A DNA stretch of 42,116 bases from Escherichia phage sortsyn, in the sequence record MN850623.1; one strand, written 5' to 3'. A program made the position numbers and the translations under genes. Shown one piece after another: positions 11,271 to 32,330 of the stretch. Each line of letters starts with the position of its first letter. The first letter of the stretch is position 1. Below the pieces are notes generated by a model that saw only the letters and a list, made by a program, of their open reading frames with translations, did no database searches and was not told the origin of the DNA.

Positions 11271-11323
11271 CGTCGATACCAGCGGCGCTAATGTTGCTAC
11301 AGGGAAACGTGAGAAGCCATAAA

Positions 11324-11366
11324 TAGCACTTTTTGCTAAAACACAAAACAGTTAATCAATTATCGT
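11324..11366 (+). promoter_or_regulatory. Promoter cassette copy A: palindrome TAGCACTTTTTGCTA plus -10-like region (weakest copy, no TG)
   Basis: Palindrome 11324-11338; upstream of dam. Confidence 0.4.
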
Positions 11367-11396: not shown

Positions 11397-12038
11397 ATGA
11401 AAGACGAGAAAGACACCACCACGATCGACCATGTGGACGGCATGACCGAAGCGGAACGCGCAGCGGCAGACGTGACCACTGTTAGCGGTCGCCGCTTCAA
11501 CAAGTCCAAGACGCCGGACGCTATCCGCCAGAAGTGGCAGACCCCGCGCTGGCTGTTCGACTGGGCTGTGAAGCGCTTCGGGCAGTTCGGGATCGACGTC
11601 GCAGCGGAGAAAGCGAACGCGCTTTGTGACGTCTATCTGGACGAGAAAACGGACGCCCTCAAGGACGGCGTAGACTGGGGCGCGGAGGGCGGGCTGGCCT
11701 GGTGCAATCCTCCTTACGCCGAGCCGCTTCCGTGGATCGTGAAGGCTATCCAGCAAGCGAAGGATCGCGACGTTACGACCGTTTTCCTCCTGAACTCCGA
11801 CGCGTCCACGGCGTGGTTTAAGAAGGCGCTGGACGCCGGGAGCCTGGTTATTCACATCACCAGCGACGGCGAGAACTCCGGGCGCGTGGCGTTCGTGAAG
11901 GCAGGGACCGAAGTCGCGGGCAAGAAGAACAGCAAGCCGTCCGTGATGTTCGTTATCAAGCCGAAGAAGCGCGGACCGATCAAGACTGAATATCTGACCC
12001 AGGCGGAAATGATGTTCGAAGGCAAAACGATGATTTAA
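11397..12038 (+). CDS. dam: Phage Dam-family DNA N6-adenine methyltransferase
   Basis: WQTPRWLFDWAVKRFGQFGIDVAA...AWCNPPYAEP...TAWFKK: NPPY catalytic motif and the phage Dam (N6_N4 MTase) signature. Confidence 0.9.
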   Translation: MKDEKDTTTIDHVDGMTEAERAAADVTTVSGRRFNKSKTPDAIRQKWQTPRWLFDWAVKRFGQFGIDVAAEKANALCDVYLDEKTDALKDGVDWGAEGGLAWCNPPYAEPLPWIVKAIQQAKDRDVTTVFLLNSDASTAWFKKALDAGSLVIHITSDGENSGRVAFVKAGTEVAGKKNSKPSVMFVIKPKKRGPIKTEYLTQAEMMFEGKTMI

Positions 12039-12054
12039 CCGAGAGGACCCAGAG

Positions 12055-12636
12055 ATGATTATTTATGCACCAGTAAGCGCCTTACGCGCTCACCAACTCA
12101 CCAAAGGCCAGCAGGACGTCCGCTACTACCTGAACGCGCTCCACTTCATCGGGAACCGGATCCGCACGTCTAACGGTCATGTTTGCATGGAAAGCACTCA
12201 TAAGCTGGTAAACGCGCCGGAGGAGGGGATTATTCTCTCAATCTCCACGCCACCGACTGGGCGGATCTTCTCCGCCGTGATCGATACCGAAGCGGGGATC
12301 GTGTACTGGCTGGACATTCCGGCAGACAAGCCGAAGGACCTCGAAGAAGTGGACCACAAAAAGGCCCGCGTCGCTGTGGGGACCGTGGACATTGTGGAGG
12401 CTAATTATCCGAACGTGGACGCGTTACTGAACAAGGCCCGCGAGAACTCGAAGGCCGTCCACGAGATCGGCGTGGCGACGCCTTACCTCGGAATGGTCGA
12501 GAGGCTGGCGAAGAAGTTCGGGATCAAGATGCCTTTTGCGAAACTGAACTTTAACGGCGCAGCGGAGCCGATCCGCGTGAACCTGACCACGCCGGACGGC
12601 GAGGCAACCCTGATCATTATGCCCGCGAGAGTGTAA
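12055..12636 (+). CDS. Hypothetical protein
   Basis: 193-aa ORF, coding-like composition, same strand block, 16 nt after dam. Confidence 0.5.
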   Translation: MIIYAPVSALRAHQLTKGQQDVRYYLNALHFIGNRIRTSNGHVCMESTHKLVNAPEEGIILSISTPPTGRIFSAVIDTEAGIVYWLDIPADKPKDLEEVDHKKARVAVGTVDIVEANYPNVDALLNKARENSKAVHEIGVATPYLGMVERLAKKFGIKMPFAKLNFNGAAEPIRVNLTTPDGEATLIIMPARV

Positions 12637-12639
12637 GCA

Positions 12640-12873
12640 ATGAAATATAACGACGGTCACACTAATAGCCGCTGGGCCATCTTCCAGGAGAAGGTCGCGG
12701 ACGAGTTAATGGCGCGTAAGCTGGTGGCCTCCCGTGAGGAGGCCGAGCACTTCGCCGAGGCGCTCGATCTCTCTTTCGAGCAGGACTATAACCCGGTACA
12801 TATGGACCAGTGGGACGCGCTGATCAAGCGTGACGCCGACGAGTACGAGAAGGATCAGAACCGTGAAGCATAA
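12640..12873 (+). CDS. Hypothetical small acidic protein
   Basis: 77-aa ORF, D/E-rich, tightly packed in operon. Confidence 0.45.
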   Translation: MKYNDGHTNSRWAIFQEKVADELMARKLVASREEAEHFAEALDLSFEQDYNPVHMDQWDALIKRDADEYEKDQNREA

Positions 12874-13603
12874 GGCGATTTTCCTGTTTAACCTGACCCG
12901 GATCATGGTGGACAAGTGGCTGGAGGCTGGCGTGGAATGCTGGATGTATGACGGGCAGCACGAGCCAGGGATCCACCCAGACGCCGACGAGCCGAACCTG
13001 ATCCGTGTGGGCCGGATGTTCGACGCAGACAACACGGAAGTAGAAGCGCTCAGAATCGCCGATGAAGTCGGGCCGGGCGTGATCTTCGTGGCCTCCTTTG
13101 CTGAATGCACCGATCTAACCTGTACCGGGGCCAGATGGTGGGAAGCGAAGCGCAAGAAGGATCCGCGCTTCCAGGAGAAGGCCGTCGCGCTGGCGAAGAT
13201 GGTCGAGCAGGTGGCTACGTTTGCCGGGTACGAAAACGGCGACTATGAGGACAAAACGCTGGTCCCCTGGATGCTGGAGAATCCGAAGATCTCCCGGCTC
13301 TCGACCATGTGGCGACCTTGCGATCACTGGTTCCACCCCTACAACTTCGGCGGCTACTTGCCGGAGGATCACCAGCATAGCCTCTACCCGGAGATCTACC
13401 CAGCGCGGGACGCGTACCCGAAGCAGACGGGGATCTGGTGCGGTGGCGGCTTCCGCTTCCCGGCATTCCAGAGCGTCCAGGCTGTTAAGGATAATCCGGG
13501 CTGGTCGAAGCTGGGCGGATCCAGCACACGAACGAAGAACATCCGAAGCGCCACGCCCGAAGGCTTCGCCGTCGCGGTCTACATCGAAAACGCTCCATTC
13601 TGA
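12863..13603 (+). CDS. Hypothetical protein with conserved Cys/His/Trp-rich segments
   Basis: GTG at 12863 preceded by AAGGA, overlapping the upstream stop (ORF track start 12830 is the alternative); no family motif recognised. Confidence 0.55.
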   Translation: MKHKAIFLFNLTRIMVDKWLEAGVECWMYDGQHEPGIHPDADEPNLIRVGRMFDADNTEVEALRIADEVGPGVIFVASFAECTDLTCTGARWWEAKRKKDPRFQEKAVALAKMVEQVATFAGYENGDYEDKTLVPWMLENPKISRLSTMWRPCDHWFHPYNFGGYLPEDHQHSLYPEIYPARDAYPKQTGIWCGGGFRFPAFQSVQAVKDNPGWSKLGGSSTRTKNIRSATPEGFAVAVYIENAPF

Positions 13604-13606
13604 CAC

Positions 13607-13630
13607 AAGGCCCTCCGGGGCCTTTTTTGC
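13607..13630 (+). terminator. Rho-independent terminator
   Basis: Stem AAGGCCC/GGGCCTT then TTTTGC. Confidence 0.7.
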
Positions 13631-13633
13631 GTA

Positions 13634-13677
13634 TAGCACTTTTTGCTAAAGCAATGCCGATTATCCTTTGTTATTAT
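13634..13677 (+). promoter_or_regulatory. Promoter cassette copy B: palindrome TAGCACTTTTTGCTA plus TGtTATTAT extended -10
   Basis: Palindrome 13634-13648; TG 13669-13670; hexamer 13672-13677. Confidence 0.5.
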
Positions 13678-13705
13678 TCTTTCACACCAACACGAGGACG
13701 ACGAA

Positions 13706-13933
13706 ATGAAACAGACATTACTCCACACCAAAACAAACAAGGCTCAGATCGTGAACCCGCTGTTACTGAAACAGGCGCACATCCTGATCGAGACAGCGAT
13801 GATCCTCCGTAACCGCCTCAAGATGTACGCGGCGGGGCCACTGGCAAAGGCAGCGCTGACCCGCGAAGCGGTCCAGGCGGAGAACGACGCCCGCGAACTT
13901 ATCCGGGGGGCGTATGGCTACCCGGCCCACTAA
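13706..13933 (+). CDS. Hypothetical protein
   Basis: ATG at 13706 downstream of promoter cassette copy B (ORF track lists 13643). Confidence 0.4.
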   Translation: MKQTLLHTKTNKAQIVNPLLLKQAHILIETAMILRNRLKMYAAGPLAKAALTREAVQAENDARELIRGAYGYPAH

Positions 13934-14192
13934 GGCCACGCGCCGGGAGATCTGGGAGGCGGCTCAGGCCGCTAACCTGGACGAGATGATCAGTAAAGTG
14001 TCCGCCGTGTTTGGCAAAGACGCGATCGCCGACATCTCGATCGAGACTCCAGACGGCGAGATGTACCTGAACAACCCGGACCCGCATCACTACCGCGTCA
14101 CGCCGGGAACCAAAAGCGAGAAGGGCGACCTTAAGCGGGCGCTGGACTCAACGAAAAACCGGAAGCACCTCAAAGGAGGATCTCGTGGGTAA
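13914..14192 (+). CDS. Hypothetical protein
   Basis: 92-aa ORF overlapping the upstream gene by 20 nt. Confidence 0.4.
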   Translation: MATRPTKATRREIWEAAQAANLDEMISKVSAVFGKDAIADISIETPDGEMYLNNPDPHHYRVTPGTKSEKGDLKRALDSTKNRKHLKGGSRG

Positions 14193-14577
14193 AGTAACAG
14201 CGCAGATTATCGGATGGACTGACGAGCAGGACGCGGAACTGACCCGCCTCGCCGGGACCATGCCGCCGCACGAACTGGCGAAGCGCATCGGTCGCAACTT
14301 CCGCCAGATGCAGGTCCGGGCCTCTAAGCTGGGCCTCTCCCTGGCGTATAACCGGACGTACACGCAATGGACGACGGAGGAGGACCGGAAGCTGGTCCGC
14401 TTCTGGGAGGGACTTCTGACCGATGAGGATCTGGACGAACTGGTGATCGCCACTGGTCGCCGGGTGATAGTACCGACTGAACTCACCCACGCGCATGTCG
14501 CGAACTGGCTCAACAAATCGCGTCCGTCAATTCGCGGACGCCTGGCAAAATTCAAGAAAGAGGGGAAAATCGCATGA
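14185..14577 (+). CDS. GcrA-like DNA-binding transcriptional regulator (two WT[DT]E[QE]D repeats)
   Basis: WTDEQDAELTRLAG...HELAKRIGRNFRQMQVRASKLGLS resembles the GcrA N-terminal domain as recalled; second repeat WTTEEDRKLVRFWEG; GTG start with AGGAGG SD. Confidence 0.5.
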   Translation: MGKVTAQIIGWTDEQDAELTRLAGTMPPHELAKRIGRNFRQMQVRASKLGLSLAYNRTYTQWTTEEDRKLVRFWEGLLTDEDLDELVIATGRRVIVPTELTHAHVANWLNKSRPSIRGRLAKFKKEGKIA

Positions 14578-14675
14578 ACAACTTACGCGGACACAAATAC
14601 GTTATATGGGGCGTAATCGCAGCAAGCGCCGCGCTGTGGGCTTTAATCGGTTTCGGCGTGTCGATGGTACTATAA
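14574..14675 (+). CDS. Small hydrophobic (single transmembrane helix) peptide, 33 aa
   Basis: ATGA start/stop overlap with upstream gene; MNNLRGHKYVIWGVIAASAALWALIGFGVSMVL; ends right before a terminator. Confidence 0.35.
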   Translation: MNNLRGHKYVIWGVIAASAALWALIGFGVSMVL

Positions 14676-18264: not shown

Positions 18265-18307
18265 ACTATAACAACATTTGATAAATCGCTTTTAGCAATT
18301 CGTGCTA
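18265..18307 (-). promoter_or_regulatory. Promoter cassette copy C (minus strand): palindrome TAGCACGAATTGCTA plus TGtTATAGT extended -10
   Basis: Palindrome 18293-18307; hexamer 18265-18270 on the minus strand. Confidence 0.5.
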
Positions 18308-18900
18308 TCCGGGTAAAGATATTCGCTCAACCGGGCCACCAGGTCCGAGTCCGGCCCGATCGGGTACAGCCCGCCGTCGTTGTTTACCGCGTGATGGATC
18401 TCAGCCAGCAATTGCTCCGCCCGCTGGAGCTTGTTCGTCGCCGCGTTATCATGCCCGATCAGCTTCGTGATCTCAGTCTCCAGGCGTCCGCCGAGTTCGG
18501 TCGTCGTGCAGTGTTCGGCCCACTCGCGAGACTCCAGCAGTTTGACCACGGCCCACACGTCCGAGTCGAGGCCGACAGTAGGGCCAGGCTGGAGCCGTGG
18601 CTGGAGTTCGTCGAGCGTCTGCTGGGTGGCGTTTAACGTCCGGCGGATCTTGTCCTGTTCGGACTTGCTCAGATCCAGGATAAGCGGATCAGGCGGCAGA
18701 CCCAGCAGCAGAGGGCGAACCTTTTCGAACGGCTCCACGCTCAGACAATCCTCCATCGTTCCCTCCTCCGTGTCGGGGAGCGTGTAGTGGAGCCGGGCGC
18801 GTCCGGTCTTTTCGTCCAGGCTGAACGAATTGATCGCGGCGATACTCAGGAACCACTCGCAATTAAATTCCGGCTCACCTACTGCGATATATCTGATCAT
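18292..18900 (-). CDS. Hypothetical protein
   Basis: 202-aa ORF; last five codons plus stop are encoded by promoter cassette copy C. Confidence 0.5.
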   Translation of the reverse strand: MIRYIAVGEPEFNCEWFLSIAAINSFSLDEKTGRARLHYTLPDTEEGTMEDCLSVEPFEKVRPLLLGLPPDPLILDLSKSEQDKIRRTLNATQQTLDELQPRLQPGPTVGLDSDVWAVVKLLESREWAEHCTTTELGGRLETEITKLIGHDNAATNKLQRAEQLLAEIHHAVNNDGGLYPIGPDSDLVARLSEYLYPDSTNC

Positions 18901-22164: not shown

Positions 22165-22343
22165 TCTGGCTCGCCTTCGCTTACGAGGTCCTGGTGATCG
22201 CCTGGATCGGCATGACCAGAGGGACCGACGCTATCCTGACCAACTGGGAAAAGCTGGCGGTCCTCGCGCCGTTCCTGCTGGCGTCTGGCTGGGCCGTCGT
22301 CGATCTGGTCCGTTCCATCCGTCGAATGAGAAAGGATAAATAG
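22161..22343 (+). CDS. Small membrane protein
   Basis: 60 aa, two hydrophobic segments; stop codon TAG is the first triplet of promoter cassette copy D. Confidence 0.4.
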   Translation: MIWLAFAYEVLVIAWIGMTRGTDAILTNWEKLAVLAPFLLASGWAVVDLVRSIRRMRKDK

Positions 22344-22383
22344 CACGAATTGCTAAAACGTCCCCGGTGATAATTGATAATAT
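22341..22383 (+). promoter_or_regulatory. Promoter cassette copy D: palindrome TAGCACGAATTGCTA plus TGaTAATAT extended -10
   Basis: Palindrome 22341-22355; TG 22375-22376; hexamer 22378-22383. Confidence 0.5.
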
Positions 22384-23465: not shown

Positions 23466-23738
23466 ATGATCTACGAACTGATCGCCTCTTTCCTGATGCT
23501 GGGCGTCGCTTATATCTTCATGGAGTGCAGGGCGGGCGCAGCGGCCTACCTGGGCCGCAAGATGGCGGAGGAGGTGAGGGCCATCCCTCACTCCCTGATC
23601 CCTCTCGTCGCCTTCATCGTGGCATTGCTGGCGGTCCTCGTGCTGGCTGTTACGCTGGTGATCTGGCCCTACTTCGCGTGGAACGACTGGCGAAACGGGA
23701 CACTGTTCAAGGCCGGGCGTTATGACGGCATCGAATAG
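23466..23738 (+). CDS. Membrane protein
   Basis: Two predicted TM helices; stop TAG is the first triplet of cassette copy E. Confidence 0.45.
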   Translation: MIYELIASFLMLGVAYIFMECRAGAAAYLGRKMAEEVRAIPHSLIPLVAFIVALLAVLVLAVTLVIWPYFAWNDWRNGTLFKAGRYDGIE

Positions 23739-23778
23739 CACGAATTGCTAAAACGCACTTATCAAATGTTGTTATAGT
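23736..23778 (+). promoter_or_regulatory. Promoter cassette copy E: palindrome TAGCACGAATTGCTA plus TGtTATAGT extended -10
   Basis: Palindrome 23736-23750; hexamer 23773-23778. Confidence 0.55.
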
Positions 23779-29325: not shown

Positions 29326-31563
29326 ATGATGGCACGAGCAACGAAGAAGGCGCAGAACTGGCAGGAATGCGCACGTAATAAGTTAAGCGCCGCGATCGGG
29401 AGCGAGGAGTCCAGTCGTAAGAAGATGATCGAAACGGCCCGTTTCGTCCGCATTCCGGGCGCACAATGGGAAGGATCGACGAACTCCGGCTTTGCGATGG
29501 ATGATGAACGATTCCAGAAATACCCTCGATTCGAGCTTAACAAGGTCGGGCGCGAGGTGGATCGCATTATCACCGACTACCGCCTGAACCGCATCAATGT
29601 TACTTTCCGCCCGAAGGACACCCAGGCCTCCGAAGAACTGGCGGACAAGTTAAACGGCAAGTTCCGCGCAGACTTCCAGGAGTCGAACGGGCCGGAGTCC
29701 GTGGACAATACCTACGACGACGGCGTGACGGGCGGAATGGGCGCTTTTCGCATGGACACCGAACTGGAGGACGAGTTCGACCCGGACAACGAGGCCCGGC
29801 ATATTGTTTTCTATCCGATCTATGATCCGGCCTCGTGCCTGTTTATCGATCAGGACTCCAAAATGTACGATCGTTCGGATGCCATGTGGATGGCGGAGCT
29901 ATTCAGCATGACCCCAGACAAGTACGAGGAGAAATATCCCGACGCGCTCGCCCCGGAGGACCTGCTGGCGATGGACACCGGGAAGCAATTCGACTGGGCC
30001 ACGAAGGACGCGATCTATCTGGCGCGTTACTACGAGGTGAAGATCGAGGACACCACCGTGATCTCCTATAAGAACCCACTCACCGGGGACGTGGAGGTAT
30101 ACGACGAGGACGAGATCGAGCAGATCGAGGACGAGCTTAAGGCCGGAGGCTGGGAGCGCCAGAAGGACCGCAAGGTGAAACGCCGTAAGGTCTATTGCGG
30201 CCTAATGTCCGGCGGTGAATGGATCGAGGAGCCGAAGCTGATCCCGTTCGAATGGATCCCGATCTTCGTGTTCAACGCCCGCCGCTCGTTTATCGACAAC
30301 ATGGAGCGCGTAAGCGGTCACGCGACCCAGGCCCTCGACGCGCAACGTCTGGAAAACCTGATCGTGTCCATGATGGCGGACCAGGCCGCGCAGTCTGGCG
30401 GCGATAACATCCCGATCATGGATATCGACATGATTCCCGGCAAGCTGGCGGACGCCTGGGGGGAACGTAACACGAAGCGCCCGGCATACTTGCCCGCGAA
30501 ATCGCTCCGTAATGCCGCTGGTGAGGTCGTGCAGCAAGCCGGGCCACTGGGTTACACGCCATCGACTCCGCTCTCTCCAGCGCTGGCGGCGGTCCTCCAG
30601 TACACCGGGAGCACTATCCAGCAGATCGTCGGATCCTCCCAGGTCGAGGCCCTTCCGTCGAACCTTGCGACCGAAACCGTGGAGGCTATTTTCGCCCGCA
30701 TGGACGGCCAGGGCGCTCTCTACATGGACAACCTGGGGAAAACCCTCCGCCATTGCGGGCGTGTTTACCTCAGCGCGGCCCGCAAGGTCTACGGCTCGGA
30801 AAACTACGTCCGAATCAAGAACGAGGACGGGACCGACGATCTCGTGTTAATGACCGGGAAAGTGATCGACCGCGACACGGACGAGGCGATCGCGATTAAC
30901 GACCTCAAGCGCGGAAAATATGAGGTCGAGGCCGACGTGGGCGAGTCCAGCAGCACCAAACGGACTGCAACCGTCCGCAGCCTGACGACGCTCCTCCAGT
31001 CGATGGCACCAGGCGACCCGAACGCCGCCGTAGTCATGGGCCTGATCATCATGAACATGGACGGCGAAGGCTTGCAGGACTTCAAAGAGTACAGCCGCCG
31101 CCAGCTTCTCCTTAACGGCATTATCAAGCCGCAGACGGACGAAGAAAAAGCCCTTGTTCAACAGGCCCAGCAAGCGGCCCAGCAGCAGGAAAACCCGGAG
31201 ATGGTAGCCGCTCAGGGCGTAGCGCAGCAGGGACAGGCCGCAGTGATGGAGCAGGAGAACAAGCGCTTAGAATTGCAACTCAAGGCGCAGAGCACCGCGT
31301 CCGACGGCAATCTGAAACAGGCGCAGACGGTCAAGACGATGGCAGAGGCGGCAGCAATCCCGCAGGATCAGCTATTGAGCGCGATCGCCGTCCTCCAGAA
31401 GTACGTGAGCCAGCAGAACAGCGACGCCCACAAACAGGCGGATCTGTTCCTCAAGGCGCAGGGGCAAGGCCACAACCAGCAGGAGGATCGGAACGCTCGC
31501 GAGATGGCAGAACGCCAGGCGCAGCAGTCCGCCGATCGCCAGTTAGGACTCGCTGGCCTGTAA
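29326..31563 (+). CDS. Portal protein (P22 gp1-like)
   Basis: Colinear similarity to P22 portal as recalled (FYEV...EDT, KRRKVY, IPIFVF segments) and a Gln/Ala-rich C-terminal barrel region (LVQQAQQAAQQQENPEMVAAQGVAQQGQAAV). Confidence 0.92.
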   Translation: MMARATKKAQNWQECARNKLSAAIGSEESSRKKMIETARFVRIPGAQWEGSTNSGFAMDDERFQKYPRFELNKVGREVDRIITDYRLNRINVTFRPKDTQASEELADKLNGKFRADFQESNGPESVDNTYDDGVTGGMGAFRMDTELEDEFDPDNEARHIVFYPIYDPASCLFIDQDSKMYDRSDAMWMAELFSMTPDKYEEKYPDALAPEDLLAMDTGKQFDWATKDAIYLARYYEVKIEDTTVISYKNPLTGDVEVYDEDEIEQIEDELKAGGWERQKDRKVKRRKVYCGLMSGGEWIEEPKLIPFEWIPIFVFNARRSFIDNMERVSGHATQALDAQRLENLIVSMMADQAAQSGGDNIPIMDIDMIPGKLADAWGERNTKRPAYLPAKSLRNAAGEVVQQAGPLGYTPSTPLSPALAAVLQYTGSTIQQIVGSSQVEALPSNLATETVEAIFARMDGQGALYMDNLGKTLRHCGRVYLSAARKVYGSENYVRIKNEDGTDDLVLMTGKVIDRDTDEAIAINDLKRGKYEVEADVGESSSTKRTATVRSLTTLLQSMAPGDPNAAVVMGLIIMNMDGEGLQDFKEYSRRQLLLNGIIKPQTDEEKALVQQAQQAAQQQENPEMVAAQGVAQQGQAAVMEQENKRLELQLKAQSTASDGNLKQAQTVKTMAEAAAIPQDQLLSAIAVLQKYVSQQNSDAHKQADLFLKAQGQGHNQQEDRNAREMAERQAQQSADRQLGLAGL

Positions 31564-31880: not shown

Positions 31881-32290
31881 ACCAGGAAAAAGTAATCCGC
31901 GCCGTTCTTCTGGCTCAGGCCGACGAGATGGGGATCCTCGACAAAGTGAAGGCGCACGAGGCCCGCCTGGCGGCTCGCTTCATCCAGCAGCCGACCGAGG
32001 AGGATCTGGCGGCGTATGGCCTGGCGCTGGCGCTGGTCGGCGCTCGCGCTTCGGAACTCATGACCAACGCGGAGCCGCAGGTGAAGGCGGGCGAGGTGGA
32101 ACCCGCTCCGATCGAGGTGGACCTGATGCCGACGGCGGAGCAGGTGGAGGCGGGCATTAAATCCCTGTGGGACGTCATACCGGGCGCGATGGATCAAGTC
32201 GTGCAGGACGACCCGGACGGCTCGGACGCGGTATTTTCTGACGCGGTGACGTTCGTCTGGCAAGGCATGATCGGCGCTCGCGCCAAATAG
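31877..32290 (+). CDS. Hypothetical protein
   Basis: 137-aa ORF; stop TAG is the first triplet of cassette copy F. Confidence 0.45.
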   Translation: MNQEKVIRAVLLAQADEMGILDKVKAHEARLAARFIQQPTEEDLAAYGLALALVGARASELMTNAEPQVKAGEVEPAPIEVDLMPTAEQVEAGIKSLWDVIPGAMDQVVQDDPDGSDAVFSDAVTFVWQGMIGARAK

Positions 32291-32330
32291 CACGAATTGC
32301 TAAAACAGCCTGATTATCAAATGTTATATT
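32288..32330 (+). promoter_or_regulatory. Promoter cassette copy F: palindrome TAGCACGAATTGCTA plus TGtTATATT extended -10
   Basis: Palindrome 32288-32302; hexamer 32325-32330. Confidence 0.55.

Follow-up and report, generated by a model that had tools for sequence, protein, structure and literature searches.

Predicted minimal cytosine-C5 DNA methyltransferase and truncated sliding-clamp homologue in a two-operon early block of Escherichia phage sortsyn

The block of genes downstream of dam in Escherichia phage sortsyn can largely be explained, since its big gene belongs to a known C5-cytosine DNA methyltransferase (C5-MTase) family and its first gene encodes a cut-down sliding clamp. With these two genes accounted for, the block appears mostly ordinary. 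Sortsyn is a Murrayvirus-type E. coli podophage, and the window refers here to the whole 42,116-nucleotide stretch of record MN850623.1. Between dam (11,397–12,038) and a 130-aa regulator-like gene (14,185–14,577), five consecutive plus-strand open reading frames (ORFs) are found, in a region 98% identical at the DNA level to that of phage IME_EC2. All five are intact in relatives and are under purifying selection (dN/dS 0.06–0.47). The best explanation, regarded as probable rather than secure, is that they form the end of the replication and DNA-modification early region, organized in two operons and including a minimal C5-MTase and a truncated clamp.

The initial annotation correctly placed five ORFs between dam and the regulator-like gene, described as GcrA-like, but its statement that they lack recognisable motifs only holds for Pfam and NCBIfam, which are silent: PHROGs, public annotation, and fold and profile searches identify two of the five. 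These searches place one product with DNMT3 and DNMT1 and another with the beta clamps. Nor can the block be considered unassigned, as the near-identical IME_EC2 record already labels the orthologue of the 246-aa protein 'Dcm methylase' and the 193-aa gene 'putative beta-clamp protein'.

The largest gene (12,863–13,603, plus strand) starts with a GTG codon, with GAGAAGGA just ahead, and encodes a 246-aa protein, the 247 aa given previously having counted the stop codon. Based on PHROG 757, AF2 modelling, Foldseek, and homology, this Dcm-like product is best described as a minimal C5-MTase with an almost absent target-recognition domain (TRD). It is a member of an established phage family of small cytosine-C5 DNA methyltransferases and is predicted to be active. 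In a 257-aa reading of the ORF, residues 11–255 match PHROG 757 (E 3.1e-64). The AF2 model (pLDDT 93.3) adopts a Class I SAM-methyltransferase Rossmann fold; two methods give C5-cytosine DNA methyltransferases as the nearest solved structures, and all seven Foldseek matches at E ≤ 1e-3 are DNMT3 or DNMT1. PF00145 does not match the protein even at E ≤ 1, NCBIfam gives no match, and a set of 120 homologues has no precomputed Pfam domain either. Searching PDB chains with the single protein likewise returned no sequence match, and the family profile gave just a spurious one (E 0.18). The family counts 2146 representative (50%-identity) clusters at E ≤ 1e-3, and 1478 phage records. One member is fused to a D12 adenine methyltransferase, another is interrupted by an intein at motif IV, and in other phages the family genes lie near replication genes and Dam. 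The dN/dS of the gene ranges from 0.14 to 0.28.

Residue conservation was computed over 241 family members. As the M.HhaI homologue search only yielded orthologues sharing 71–80% identity, which are too uniform for a profile, an M.HhaI-type profile was built instead from 67 diverse viral C5-MTases issued from the locus scan. Using hhalign, motifs I, IV, VI, and IX of the family are colinear with this profile, with a P of 0.059 that is weak when taken alone. Motif IV corresponds to FAECT (13,097–13,111, plus strand), aligned to GFPCQ of M.HhaI, and contains the catalytic Cys82 (codon 13,106–13,108), conserved in 97% of the family. The preceding residue is Glu in 54% and Pro in 38% of members, sortsyn having Glu (AEC versus PPC). 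Motif VI is ENP (13,277–13,285, plus strand), the counterpart of ENV in M.HhaI and other canonical C5-MTases; E139, N140, and P141 are conserved at 99%, 97%, and 99%, respectively. Near-invariant positions thus comprise C82, E139-N140-P141, K187, T189, and R228. The K187-x-T189 strand stands at the place of the motif VIII R-x-R, and R228-S-x-T-P is motif IX-like, with about 30 residues between them. No GNAV-type motif X was identified in the protein, which stops soon past motif IX. In another set of phage C5-MTs, enzymes with disrupted motifs VIII–X showed weak or no activity in E. coli (PMC8256090).

The motif I-like segment, FLFNLTR (12,881–12,901, plus strand), is a degenerate SAM-binding loop, aligned to FIDLFAGLGG of M.HhaI and SLFDGSG of the Drexlerviridae Dcm. 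Instead of the canonical F-x-G-x-G, the sortsyn protein has F-N-L-T-R, with both glycines gone. The family consensus is F/Y-D-x-T-G, with Gly in 75% and Arg in 6% of members; F-D-x-T-G is present in most close relatives, and F-D-G-S-G only in distant members (e.g., JK16 and PSKM). In the SFAEC subgroup, the loop is free to vary (NLTR, NYTD, NESF, NRSR, NHSD, NKTN), but position 10 (D/N) and position 12 (S/T) are conserved across the whole family.

The peptides highlighted earlier as conserved-looking, FAECTDLTCTGARWW, WRPCDHWFHPYNFGG, and IWCGGGF, are present in the 246-aa translation. Nevertheless, the Cys/His richness was overstated (5 Cys, 7 His, and 9 Trp), and the Cys and aromatic clusters were a misleading clue, as a single cysteine matters, the catalytic nucleophile. 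Only Cys82 is invariant and the other cysteines vary, so that the protein has no metal-binding cluster, and interpreting its Cys and His residues as a zinc or other metal site is ruled out. The suggested role of this protein in DNA modification or anti-restriction gains support from the C5-MTase fold, the catalytic motifs, and a 37%-identical relative that is reported to make 5mC in vivo. A hypermodification pathway was also considered and rejected, as TET/5mYOX, glycosyltransferase, and hydroxymethylase genes are missing from the genome annotation and from the family's neighbours. There is no sign of any non-canonical base other than m6A and m5C.

The first gene (12,055–12,636, plus strand) encodes a 193-aa truncated beta-sliding-clamp (DnaN) homologue, identified by its family profile against the PDB, its AF2 model (pLDDT 83), and the deposited label. 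While the single protein had no match in a PDB sequence search, the family profile only matched beta clamps (E 6e-6 to 2e-5), aligning to residues 139–177, 222–252, and 315–365 of E. coli beta. The protein corresponds to domain II and the C-terminal stretch of domain III. It has neither domain I nor the ring-closing interfaces, and lacks some 60 residues of domain III (beta 253–314). It has clamp-fold homology to DnaN but not the three domains per protomer of a head-to-tail dimeric ring. Without domain I and part of domain III, the protein cannot build the head-to-tail dimer interface and is unlikely to close into a ring. R23, L26, G41, H42, P119, Y144, and M189-P190-A191-R192 are retained, and the protein probably binds host or phage proteins carrying clamp-binding motifs, rather than encircling DNA. 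The RusA-like resolvase label of PHROG 3007 is wrong for this protein and is ruled out by its fold, neither a RusA fold nor a Pfam RusA domain being found in it. This truncated clamp family, present in 160 phage records, is routinely mislabelled as RusA resolvase by annotation pipelines.

The conserved intergenic element ATAGCACTTTTTGCTAAA lies upstream of the dam operon (11,323–11,340, plus strand), and a second exact copy (13,633–13,650, plus strand) precedes the following operon. Six copies occur in the window, versus 0.01 expected by chance; all are intergenic, with a TGTTATA-like box downstream, and the element is probably a promoter/operator. A hairpin resembling an intrinsic terminator, AAGGCCCTCCGGGGCCTT, with a T run after it (13,607–13,630, plus strand), was found by a terminator scan and direct sequence reading, and marks the end of the operon running from dam to the Dcm-like gene. 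The first operon extends from the promoter-like element at 11,323 to the terminator at 13,607, its products being Dam, the 193-aa clamp homologue, an acidic protein of 77 aa, and the minimal C5-MTase. Its first gene (11,397–12,038, plus strand) encodes a Dam-type N6-adenine DNA methyltransferase (Pfam PF05869, E 1.5e-44; PHROG 111).

The three other products of the block are small. The 77-aa acidic protein (12,640–12,873, plus strand; pI 4.6; dN/dS 0.34–0.47) belongs to PHROG 2676, a function-unknown group, and its gene overlaps the start of the Dcm-like gene by 11 nt. In Pantoea phage PSKM, a homologue occupies the same place, with the clamp fragment and the Dcm-like gene on either side. The 75-aa basic protein (13,706–13,933, plus strand; pI 10.1; dN/dS 0.21) starts at an ATG with ACGAGGA ahead, the mechanical ORF beginning at a TTG at 13,643; it matches nothing in PHROG, Pfam, or NCBIfam, and is kept in Murrayvirus- and Sortsnevirus-type loci. 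The 92-aa protein (13,914–14,192, plus strand) belongs to PHROG 2817 (E 1.7e-25), its match to DUF7334 (E 7.8e-4) being under the cut-off. Its N-terminal region of about 35 aa recurs in Serratia phages, in a small ORF overlapping the 3' end of a Dam-type methylase gene.

A plausible mode of action can be proposed for the two identified products. The Dcm-like enzyme would flip the target cytosine out, the Cys82 thiolate would attack C6, and Glu139 of the ENP motif would protonate N3, with Lys187 standing in for the motif VIII arginine; the methyl group of S-adenosylmethionine would move to cytosine C5. As only about 30 residues occupy the place of the TRD, the recognition site is probably short. 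Together, Dam and the Dcm-like enzyme may pre-methylate fresh phage DNA against methylation-sensitive restriction enzymes, at the potential cost of making the phage visible to defences that sense methylation (e.g., retron Ec86). As for the 193-aa fragment, it would use its kept beta-clamp pocket to bind proteins with clamp-binding motifs.

An alternative is that the sortsyn-clade protein has become a pseudoenzyme, or binds DNA without methylating it, having kept the base-flipping, cytosine-binding scaffold and lost SAM binding; it would occupy or shield sites, or partner another protein, as DNMT3L does for DNMT3A. The loss of both motif I glycines and the free variation of the loop in the SFAEC subgroup are consistent with this, as are the FDGSG and PPC motifs retained by an active relative, and the inactivity in E. 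coli of phage C5-MTs with degenerate late motifs (PMC8256090). It is nevertheless considered unlikely, since purifying selection acts on the gene and four residues stay invariant, namely the catalytic Cys, the Glu of ENP, K187, and R228. Exactly these residues have been lost in pseudoenzymes such as DNMT3L. The D/N and S/T kept family-wide at positions 10 and 12 suggest an altered yet functional cofactor loop. It is very improbable that the C5-MTase chemistry serves to install a non-methyl group (e.g., carboxymethyl from carboxy-SAM) or acts on a substrate other than DNA, such as tRNA in the case of DNMT2: 8yf3 scores below the DNMT3 enzymes, no CmoA-like, TET, glycosyltransferase, or other tailoring enzyme appears in the genome annotation or among the family's neighbours, family members are fused or linked to DNA adenine methylases and replication genes, and the characterized relative makes plain 5mC (K42 preprint).

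The four products of the first operon could also form one physical machine, in which the clamp fragment would tether the methylases or host clamp-binding proteins to the fork and couple methylation to synthesis, in the manner of DNMT1 and PCNA. The same four-gene order is found in Murrayvirus, Sortsnevirus, C130_2-like, and metagenomic (L010/L042) loci, and even in the unrelated Pantoea myophage PSKM; the clamp fragment retains its peptide-binding pocket residues, and no replicative DNA polymerase is found among the annotated genes of the genome. Such a machine is, however, quite doubtful, as the shared order may just reflect cassette transfer. The clamp fragment is near the Dcm-like gene in only 11 of 81 loci, and the more distant clamp-fragment genes of Dhillonvirus and Saltrevirus do not adjoin methylases. 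In addition, a scan of the phage proteome for clamp-binding motifs gave three loose matches, none of them in Dam or the Dcm-like protein. At the speculative end, there is a slim chance that the cassette is a replication-coupled DNA-methylation module, with a ring-less clamp docking methylases or hijacked host proteins at the fork, and, separately, that the enzyme with the glycine-less loop uses its cofactor in an altered way. The preferred reading remains that of a minimal C5-MTase and a truncated clamp encoded in a two-operon early block.

The main practical value of these results lies in annotation correction, the Dcm-like family, of which the sortsyn protein is a divergent member, being very common in phages, yet devoid of a Pfam or NCBIfam model that recognises it. 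Both families are also relevant to phage–host conflict, with respect to restriction evasion, retron Ec86 triggering, and a possible interference with clamp-binding proteins of the host. Moreover, the Murrayvirus clade would offer a natural test of how much of its SAM loop a C5-methyltransferase can lose.

Regarding known systems, the closest ones for the 193-aa protein are E. coli beta, to which it aligns from about residue 130 to the C-terminus, and beta*, the UV-induced short form of E. coli beta consisting of its C-terminal two thirds. The pocket-lining residues common to beta and the fragment are QDVRYYLN, GH, (F/Y)P, the Y of IGFNVSY, and the MP-R(L/V) C-terminus. The Dcm-like protein has the Class I Rossmann fold of canonical C5-MTases (PF00145: M.HhaI, E. 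coli Dcm, and the DNMT3A/B catalytic domain), and its motifs I, IV (with the catalytic Cys), VI (E-N-x), and IX-like (R-x-x-T-P-R/E) follow one another as they do there. It differs from them by the loss of the motif I glycines, by the replacement of PC with EC, ENV with ENP, and apparently the motif VIII R-x-R with K-x-T, by a TRD that seems cut to about 30 residues, and by an overall length shorter by about 80–230 residues. The phage C5-MT/TET hypermodification clusters (PNAS 2021, PMC8256090) likewise contain phage-encoded C5-MTs, orphan enzymes that recognise short sites and work post-replicatively; unlike the sortsyn protein, they are Pfam-recognisable and paired with TET and glycosyltransferase genes, partners that are neither annotated in the sortsyn genome nor seen among the neighbours of the Dcm-like family.

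The nearest counterpart is the Drexlerviridae Dcm (K42/KarlJaspers type; JK16; FritzSarasin Bas04), of similar size (236 versus 246 aa), whose 711-bp gene in JK16 encodes a protein 37% identical to that of sortsyn over the full length (BLASTP, E 4e-51). The K42/KarlJaspers enzyme is taken to be of the JK16/FritzSarasin type from its gene length and four residue numbers, the JK16-type Dcm having C82, E128, K175, and K176 at the exact positions mutated in the K42 study. In the K42 preprint, the Dcm orthologue is reported to make 5mC in vivo, as determined by LC-MS on msDNA, with the signal lost in the mutant; its authors used a dcm+ host and took CCWGG as the specificity without mapping it. Activity and retron Ec86 triggering were tested there for the Drexlerviridae enzyme only. 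This enzyme has FDGSG and PPC where sortsyn has FNLTR and AEC; in addition, 11 residues are inserted ahead of ENP in the sortsyn protein, whose Glu139 corresponds to E128 of the K42 Dcm. The catalytic Cys carries the same number, 82, in both proteins, which also share the Glu of ENP, a K-x-T strand, and an RS-TP-GFA motif at the C-terminus, and DNMT3A/B are the closest solved structures for both, as reported for the Drexlerviridae Dcm.

The five consecutive ORFs placed by the initial annotation between dam (11397-12038; PF05869, E 1.5e-44) and a 130-aa regulator-like gene (14185-14577) are all found, on the + strand: a 193-aa ORF (12055-12636), a 77-aa ORF (12640-12873), a 246-aa ORF (12863-13603), a 75-aa ORF (13706-13933), and a 92-aa ORF (13914-14192). 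They are uninterrupted in relatives and under purifying selection: dN/dS lies at 0.06-0.27 in the 193-aa gene and at 0.14-0.28 in the 246-aa gene, and the small ORFs span 0.21-0.47. The description of the block as unassigned does not hold, since recognisable families, which public records already annotate, account for two of the five genes: a Dcm-like C5-cytosine DNA methyltransferase candidate (246 aa) and a truncated homologue of the beta sliding clamp, DnaN (193 aa). One of these two families has experimental support.

The 246-aa protein matches PHROG 757, "DNA methyltransferase" (E 3e-64), and its orthologues are named "Dcm methylase" or "putative DNA cytosine C5 methyltransferase" in GenBank; Pfam and NCBIfam scans of the protein gave no match. 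The family comprises 184 90%-identity clusters in a word search and 2146 50%-identity representatives at E<=1e-3, and is present in at least 581 viral contigs and in 1478 deposited phage genomes, including Drexlerviridae, Dhillonvirus, rV5-like, and many Klebsiella phages. Nearly all members are stand-alone proteins of 210-260 aa; one is fused with a D12 N6-adenine methylase, and another contains an intein, after which the C-terminal flank restarts at profile position 77, corresponding to motif IV. In other phages, the neighbouring genes encode DnaB helicases, family A polymerases, GPA replication proteins, and Dam. From its GTG start, the gene shares 11 nt (12863-12873) with the end of the 77-aa ORF, which suggests translational coupling. 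An alternative upstream GTG at 12830, from the mechanical ORF call, would add 11 residues without counterpart in homologues.

The AlphaFold2 model, built from a 121-sequence alignment, has a pLDDT of 93.3 and a pTM of 0.91. An independent Foldseek search, a check proposed in the initial annotation, returned at E<=1e-3 only DNMT3A/B and DNMT1 (TM-scores 0.43-0.49), the closest solved folds. An hhalign comparison set a profile built from 241 members of the family against one of M.HhaI (sequence checked as identical to PDB 10mh) and 67 viral PF00145-type enzymes. The alignment is colinear, albeit statistically weak (P 0.059), and pairs F-L-F-N-L-T-R with F-I-D-L-F-A-G-L-G-G, F-A-E-C-T with G-F-P-C-Q, E-N-P with E-N-V, and I-R-S-A-T-P-E with R-K-L-H-P-R-E. 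Within the family, C82, the predicted nucleophile, is conserved at 97%, E139/N140/P141 at 97-99%, K187 at 97%, T189 at 95%, and R228 at 97%. Family, fold, and motifs thus bear out the earlier guess of a DNA-modification role, and the peptides then cited are found in the translation. The protein contains 5 Cys, along with 7 His and 9 Trp, of which only Cys82 is conserved, which leaves no Cys/His cluster of the metal-binding type.

The cofactor loop of the Murrayvirus/Sortsnevirus clade is degenerate, reading F-N-L-T-R with neither glycine kept. The D/N and S/T of the loop are still conserved; close relatives of the protein mostly carry F-D-x-T-G. The clade also has S-F-A-E-C where others have G-F-P-P/E-C, the position preceding the catalytic Cys being E (54%) or P (38%) family-wide. 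Only about 30 residues separate the K-x-T strand from the motif IX-like element and the C-terminus follows soon after, so the target-recognition domain is minimal; no motif X was identified in the 246-aa protein. In an unrelated set of phage C5 methyltransferases, disruption of motifs VIII-X went with weak or no activity in E. coli (PMC8256090). Because of this precedent and of the loop, the SFAEC motif, the minimal recognition domain, and the missing motif X, activity of the clade's enzyme is predicted as likely, but not certain. E. coli K-12, on which these phages plate, has McrBC, and a promiscuous methylase making RmC sites would be self-defeating in such a host; this speaks for a specificity that is Dcm-like (YmC) or restricted in some other way.

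The 193-aa protein is named "RusA-like Holliday junction resolvase" in PHROG 3007, a name repeated by RefSeq. In the PDB, its family profile finds beta clamps and nothing else (E 6e-6 to 2e-5). In profile alignments, residues 10-44 pair with E. coli beta 139-177 (QDVRYYLNALHF vs QDVRYYLNGMLF), residues 104-130 with 222-252, and residues 137-193 with 315-365, where MPARV faces MPMRL. In Dhillonvirus TheodorHerzl and Saltrevirus 64795_sal3, more distant members of the family still show NDVRYYLNG, T(D/N)GHR, DG(R/Q)FPD, and IGF..(A/G)YL, and their C-terminus is MPMRL, exactly as in E. coli beta. Based on these blocks and motifs, the protein corresponds to beta domain II and a domain III remnant. 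The residues lining the pocket for clamp-binding motifs, which in E. coli beta are R152, L155, G174, H175, P242, Y323, M362, P363, and R365, are kept (R23, L26, G41, H42, P119, Y144, M189, P190, and R192). Compared with E. coli beta, domain I and the 253-314 segment (dimer interface) are missing, making a closed ring unlikely. The fragment may instead bind proteins with clamp-binding motifs as a decoy or adaptor, in a phage that would have to borrow the host polymerase. The family counts 160 phage records, under names that vary between Pol III beta, DNA clamp, and RusA-like; the resolvase label is systematically applied to truncated clamps by PHROG-based pipelines and RefSeq. Members of the truncated-clamp family also lie at L168:2471-2989 and L169:2474-3010. 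A QADLF in the portal protein C-terminus (29326-31563, residue ~709), resembling the Pol III alpha motif QADMF, is probably a chance match.

Among the small ORFs, the acidic 77-aa product (pI 4.6, PHROG 2676) evolves fastest, with 59% identity to the Lumpael copy vs 89-98% for the flanking genes. The basic 75-aa product has no family match. The 92-aa product falls in PHROG 2817 and scores under the cut-off for DUF7334; over its ~35 N-terminal residues it shares 65-69% identity with the beginning of an 87-aa ORF in Serratia phages (L166:1492-1755), an ORF that overlaps a Dam-type methylase gene at the latter's 3' end. Klebsiella and E. coli phages have weaker matches beside methylase genes.

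An 18-bp element, ATAGCACTTTTTGCTAAA, has exact copies at 11323 and 13633, and a variant, ATAGCACGAATTGCTAAA, occupies four further intergenic sites. The six copies of ATAGCAC-N3-TTGCTAAA (11323-11340, 13633-13650, 18291-18308 on the - strand, 22340-22357, 23735-23752, and 32287-32304) compare with 0.01 expected by chance, and all are intergenic. Each holds an inverted repeat, TAGCA/TGCTA, and is followed ~20 nt downstream by a conserved TGTTATA-like box; the element is probably a phage promoter combined with an operator for some regulator. With the copies at 11323 and 13633 and a hairpin with a T run (13607-13630) directly after the Dcm-like stop codon, the block divides into two transcription units: dam, clamp fragment, 77-aa ORF, and Dcm-like gene, then the 75-aa ORF, 92-aa ORF, and regulator-like gene.

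Along its full extent, region 11397-14600 shares 98.0% identity with Enterobacteria phage IME_EC2 (KF591601, genus Murrayvirus); for phages ST231, Lumpael, sortregn, and KMB41 the figure is 86-91%. The sortsyn genome combines P22-like virion genes with a replication/recombination set of SF2 helicase, primase, SSB, Erf, RecE-like exonuclease, and primase-like protein; no replicative DNA polymerase is found among its annotated genes. This genome, which carries its own Dam gene, is very dense in GATC (524 sites, one per 80 bp, 1.39x the Markov expectation). It holds no EcoRI site (GAATTC; 5.3 expected), and CCWGG is slightly rarer than expected (159 sites, ratio 0.79).

Sortsnevirus, C130_2-like loci, and two metagenomic loci (L010 and L042) share the gene order of the first unit. 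Genes gp40-gp43 of the Pantoea myophage PSKM (L167:1144-3464) reproduce the order of 11397-13603, namely Dam, clamp fragment, a ~80-aa protein, and Dcm-like methyltransferase; since PSKM, a myophage, belongs to another genus, the shared order suggests a mobile cassette or functional module. That the clamp fragment and the methylases are physically coupled is possible but weakly supported, because more distant fragments are not linked to methylases and a fragment is present at only 11 of the 81 Dcm-like loci. The interest of the block is modest, and lies in the clade's degenerate cofactor loop, the ring-less clamp fragment, and the recurrent four-gene cassette.

The experimental support comes from Drexlerviridae phage K42, whose retron Ec86 escapers all map to a 711-bp "Dcm-like C5 cytosine methyltransferase" gene (bioRxiv 2023, 10.1101/2023.08.16.553469). 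In the same preprint, the modelled protein was superposed on DNMT3A, with C82, E128, K175, and K176 as active site, and its expression increased 5mC on retron msDNA by LC-MS, with no rise for the quadruple mutant; the assay host was dcm+, and CCWGG specificity was assumed by the authors (10.1101/2023.08.16.553469). The Dcm gene of JK16, also from Drexlerviridae, is 711 bp long, shares 97.9% DNA identity with that of FritzSarasin (Bas04), and encodes Cys, Glu, Lys, and Lys at precisely 82, 128, 175, and 176, from which we infer that the K42 gene is probably of this type. The sortsyn protein is 37% identical to JK16 Dcm over its full length (E 4e-51), and its Cys82, Glu139, and Lys187 are the equivalents of residues in this set. 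The two differ in the loop, which is a canonical F-D-G-S-G in the active Drexlerviridae type and in the PSKM enzyme, whereas the sortsyn clade has F-N-L-T-R.
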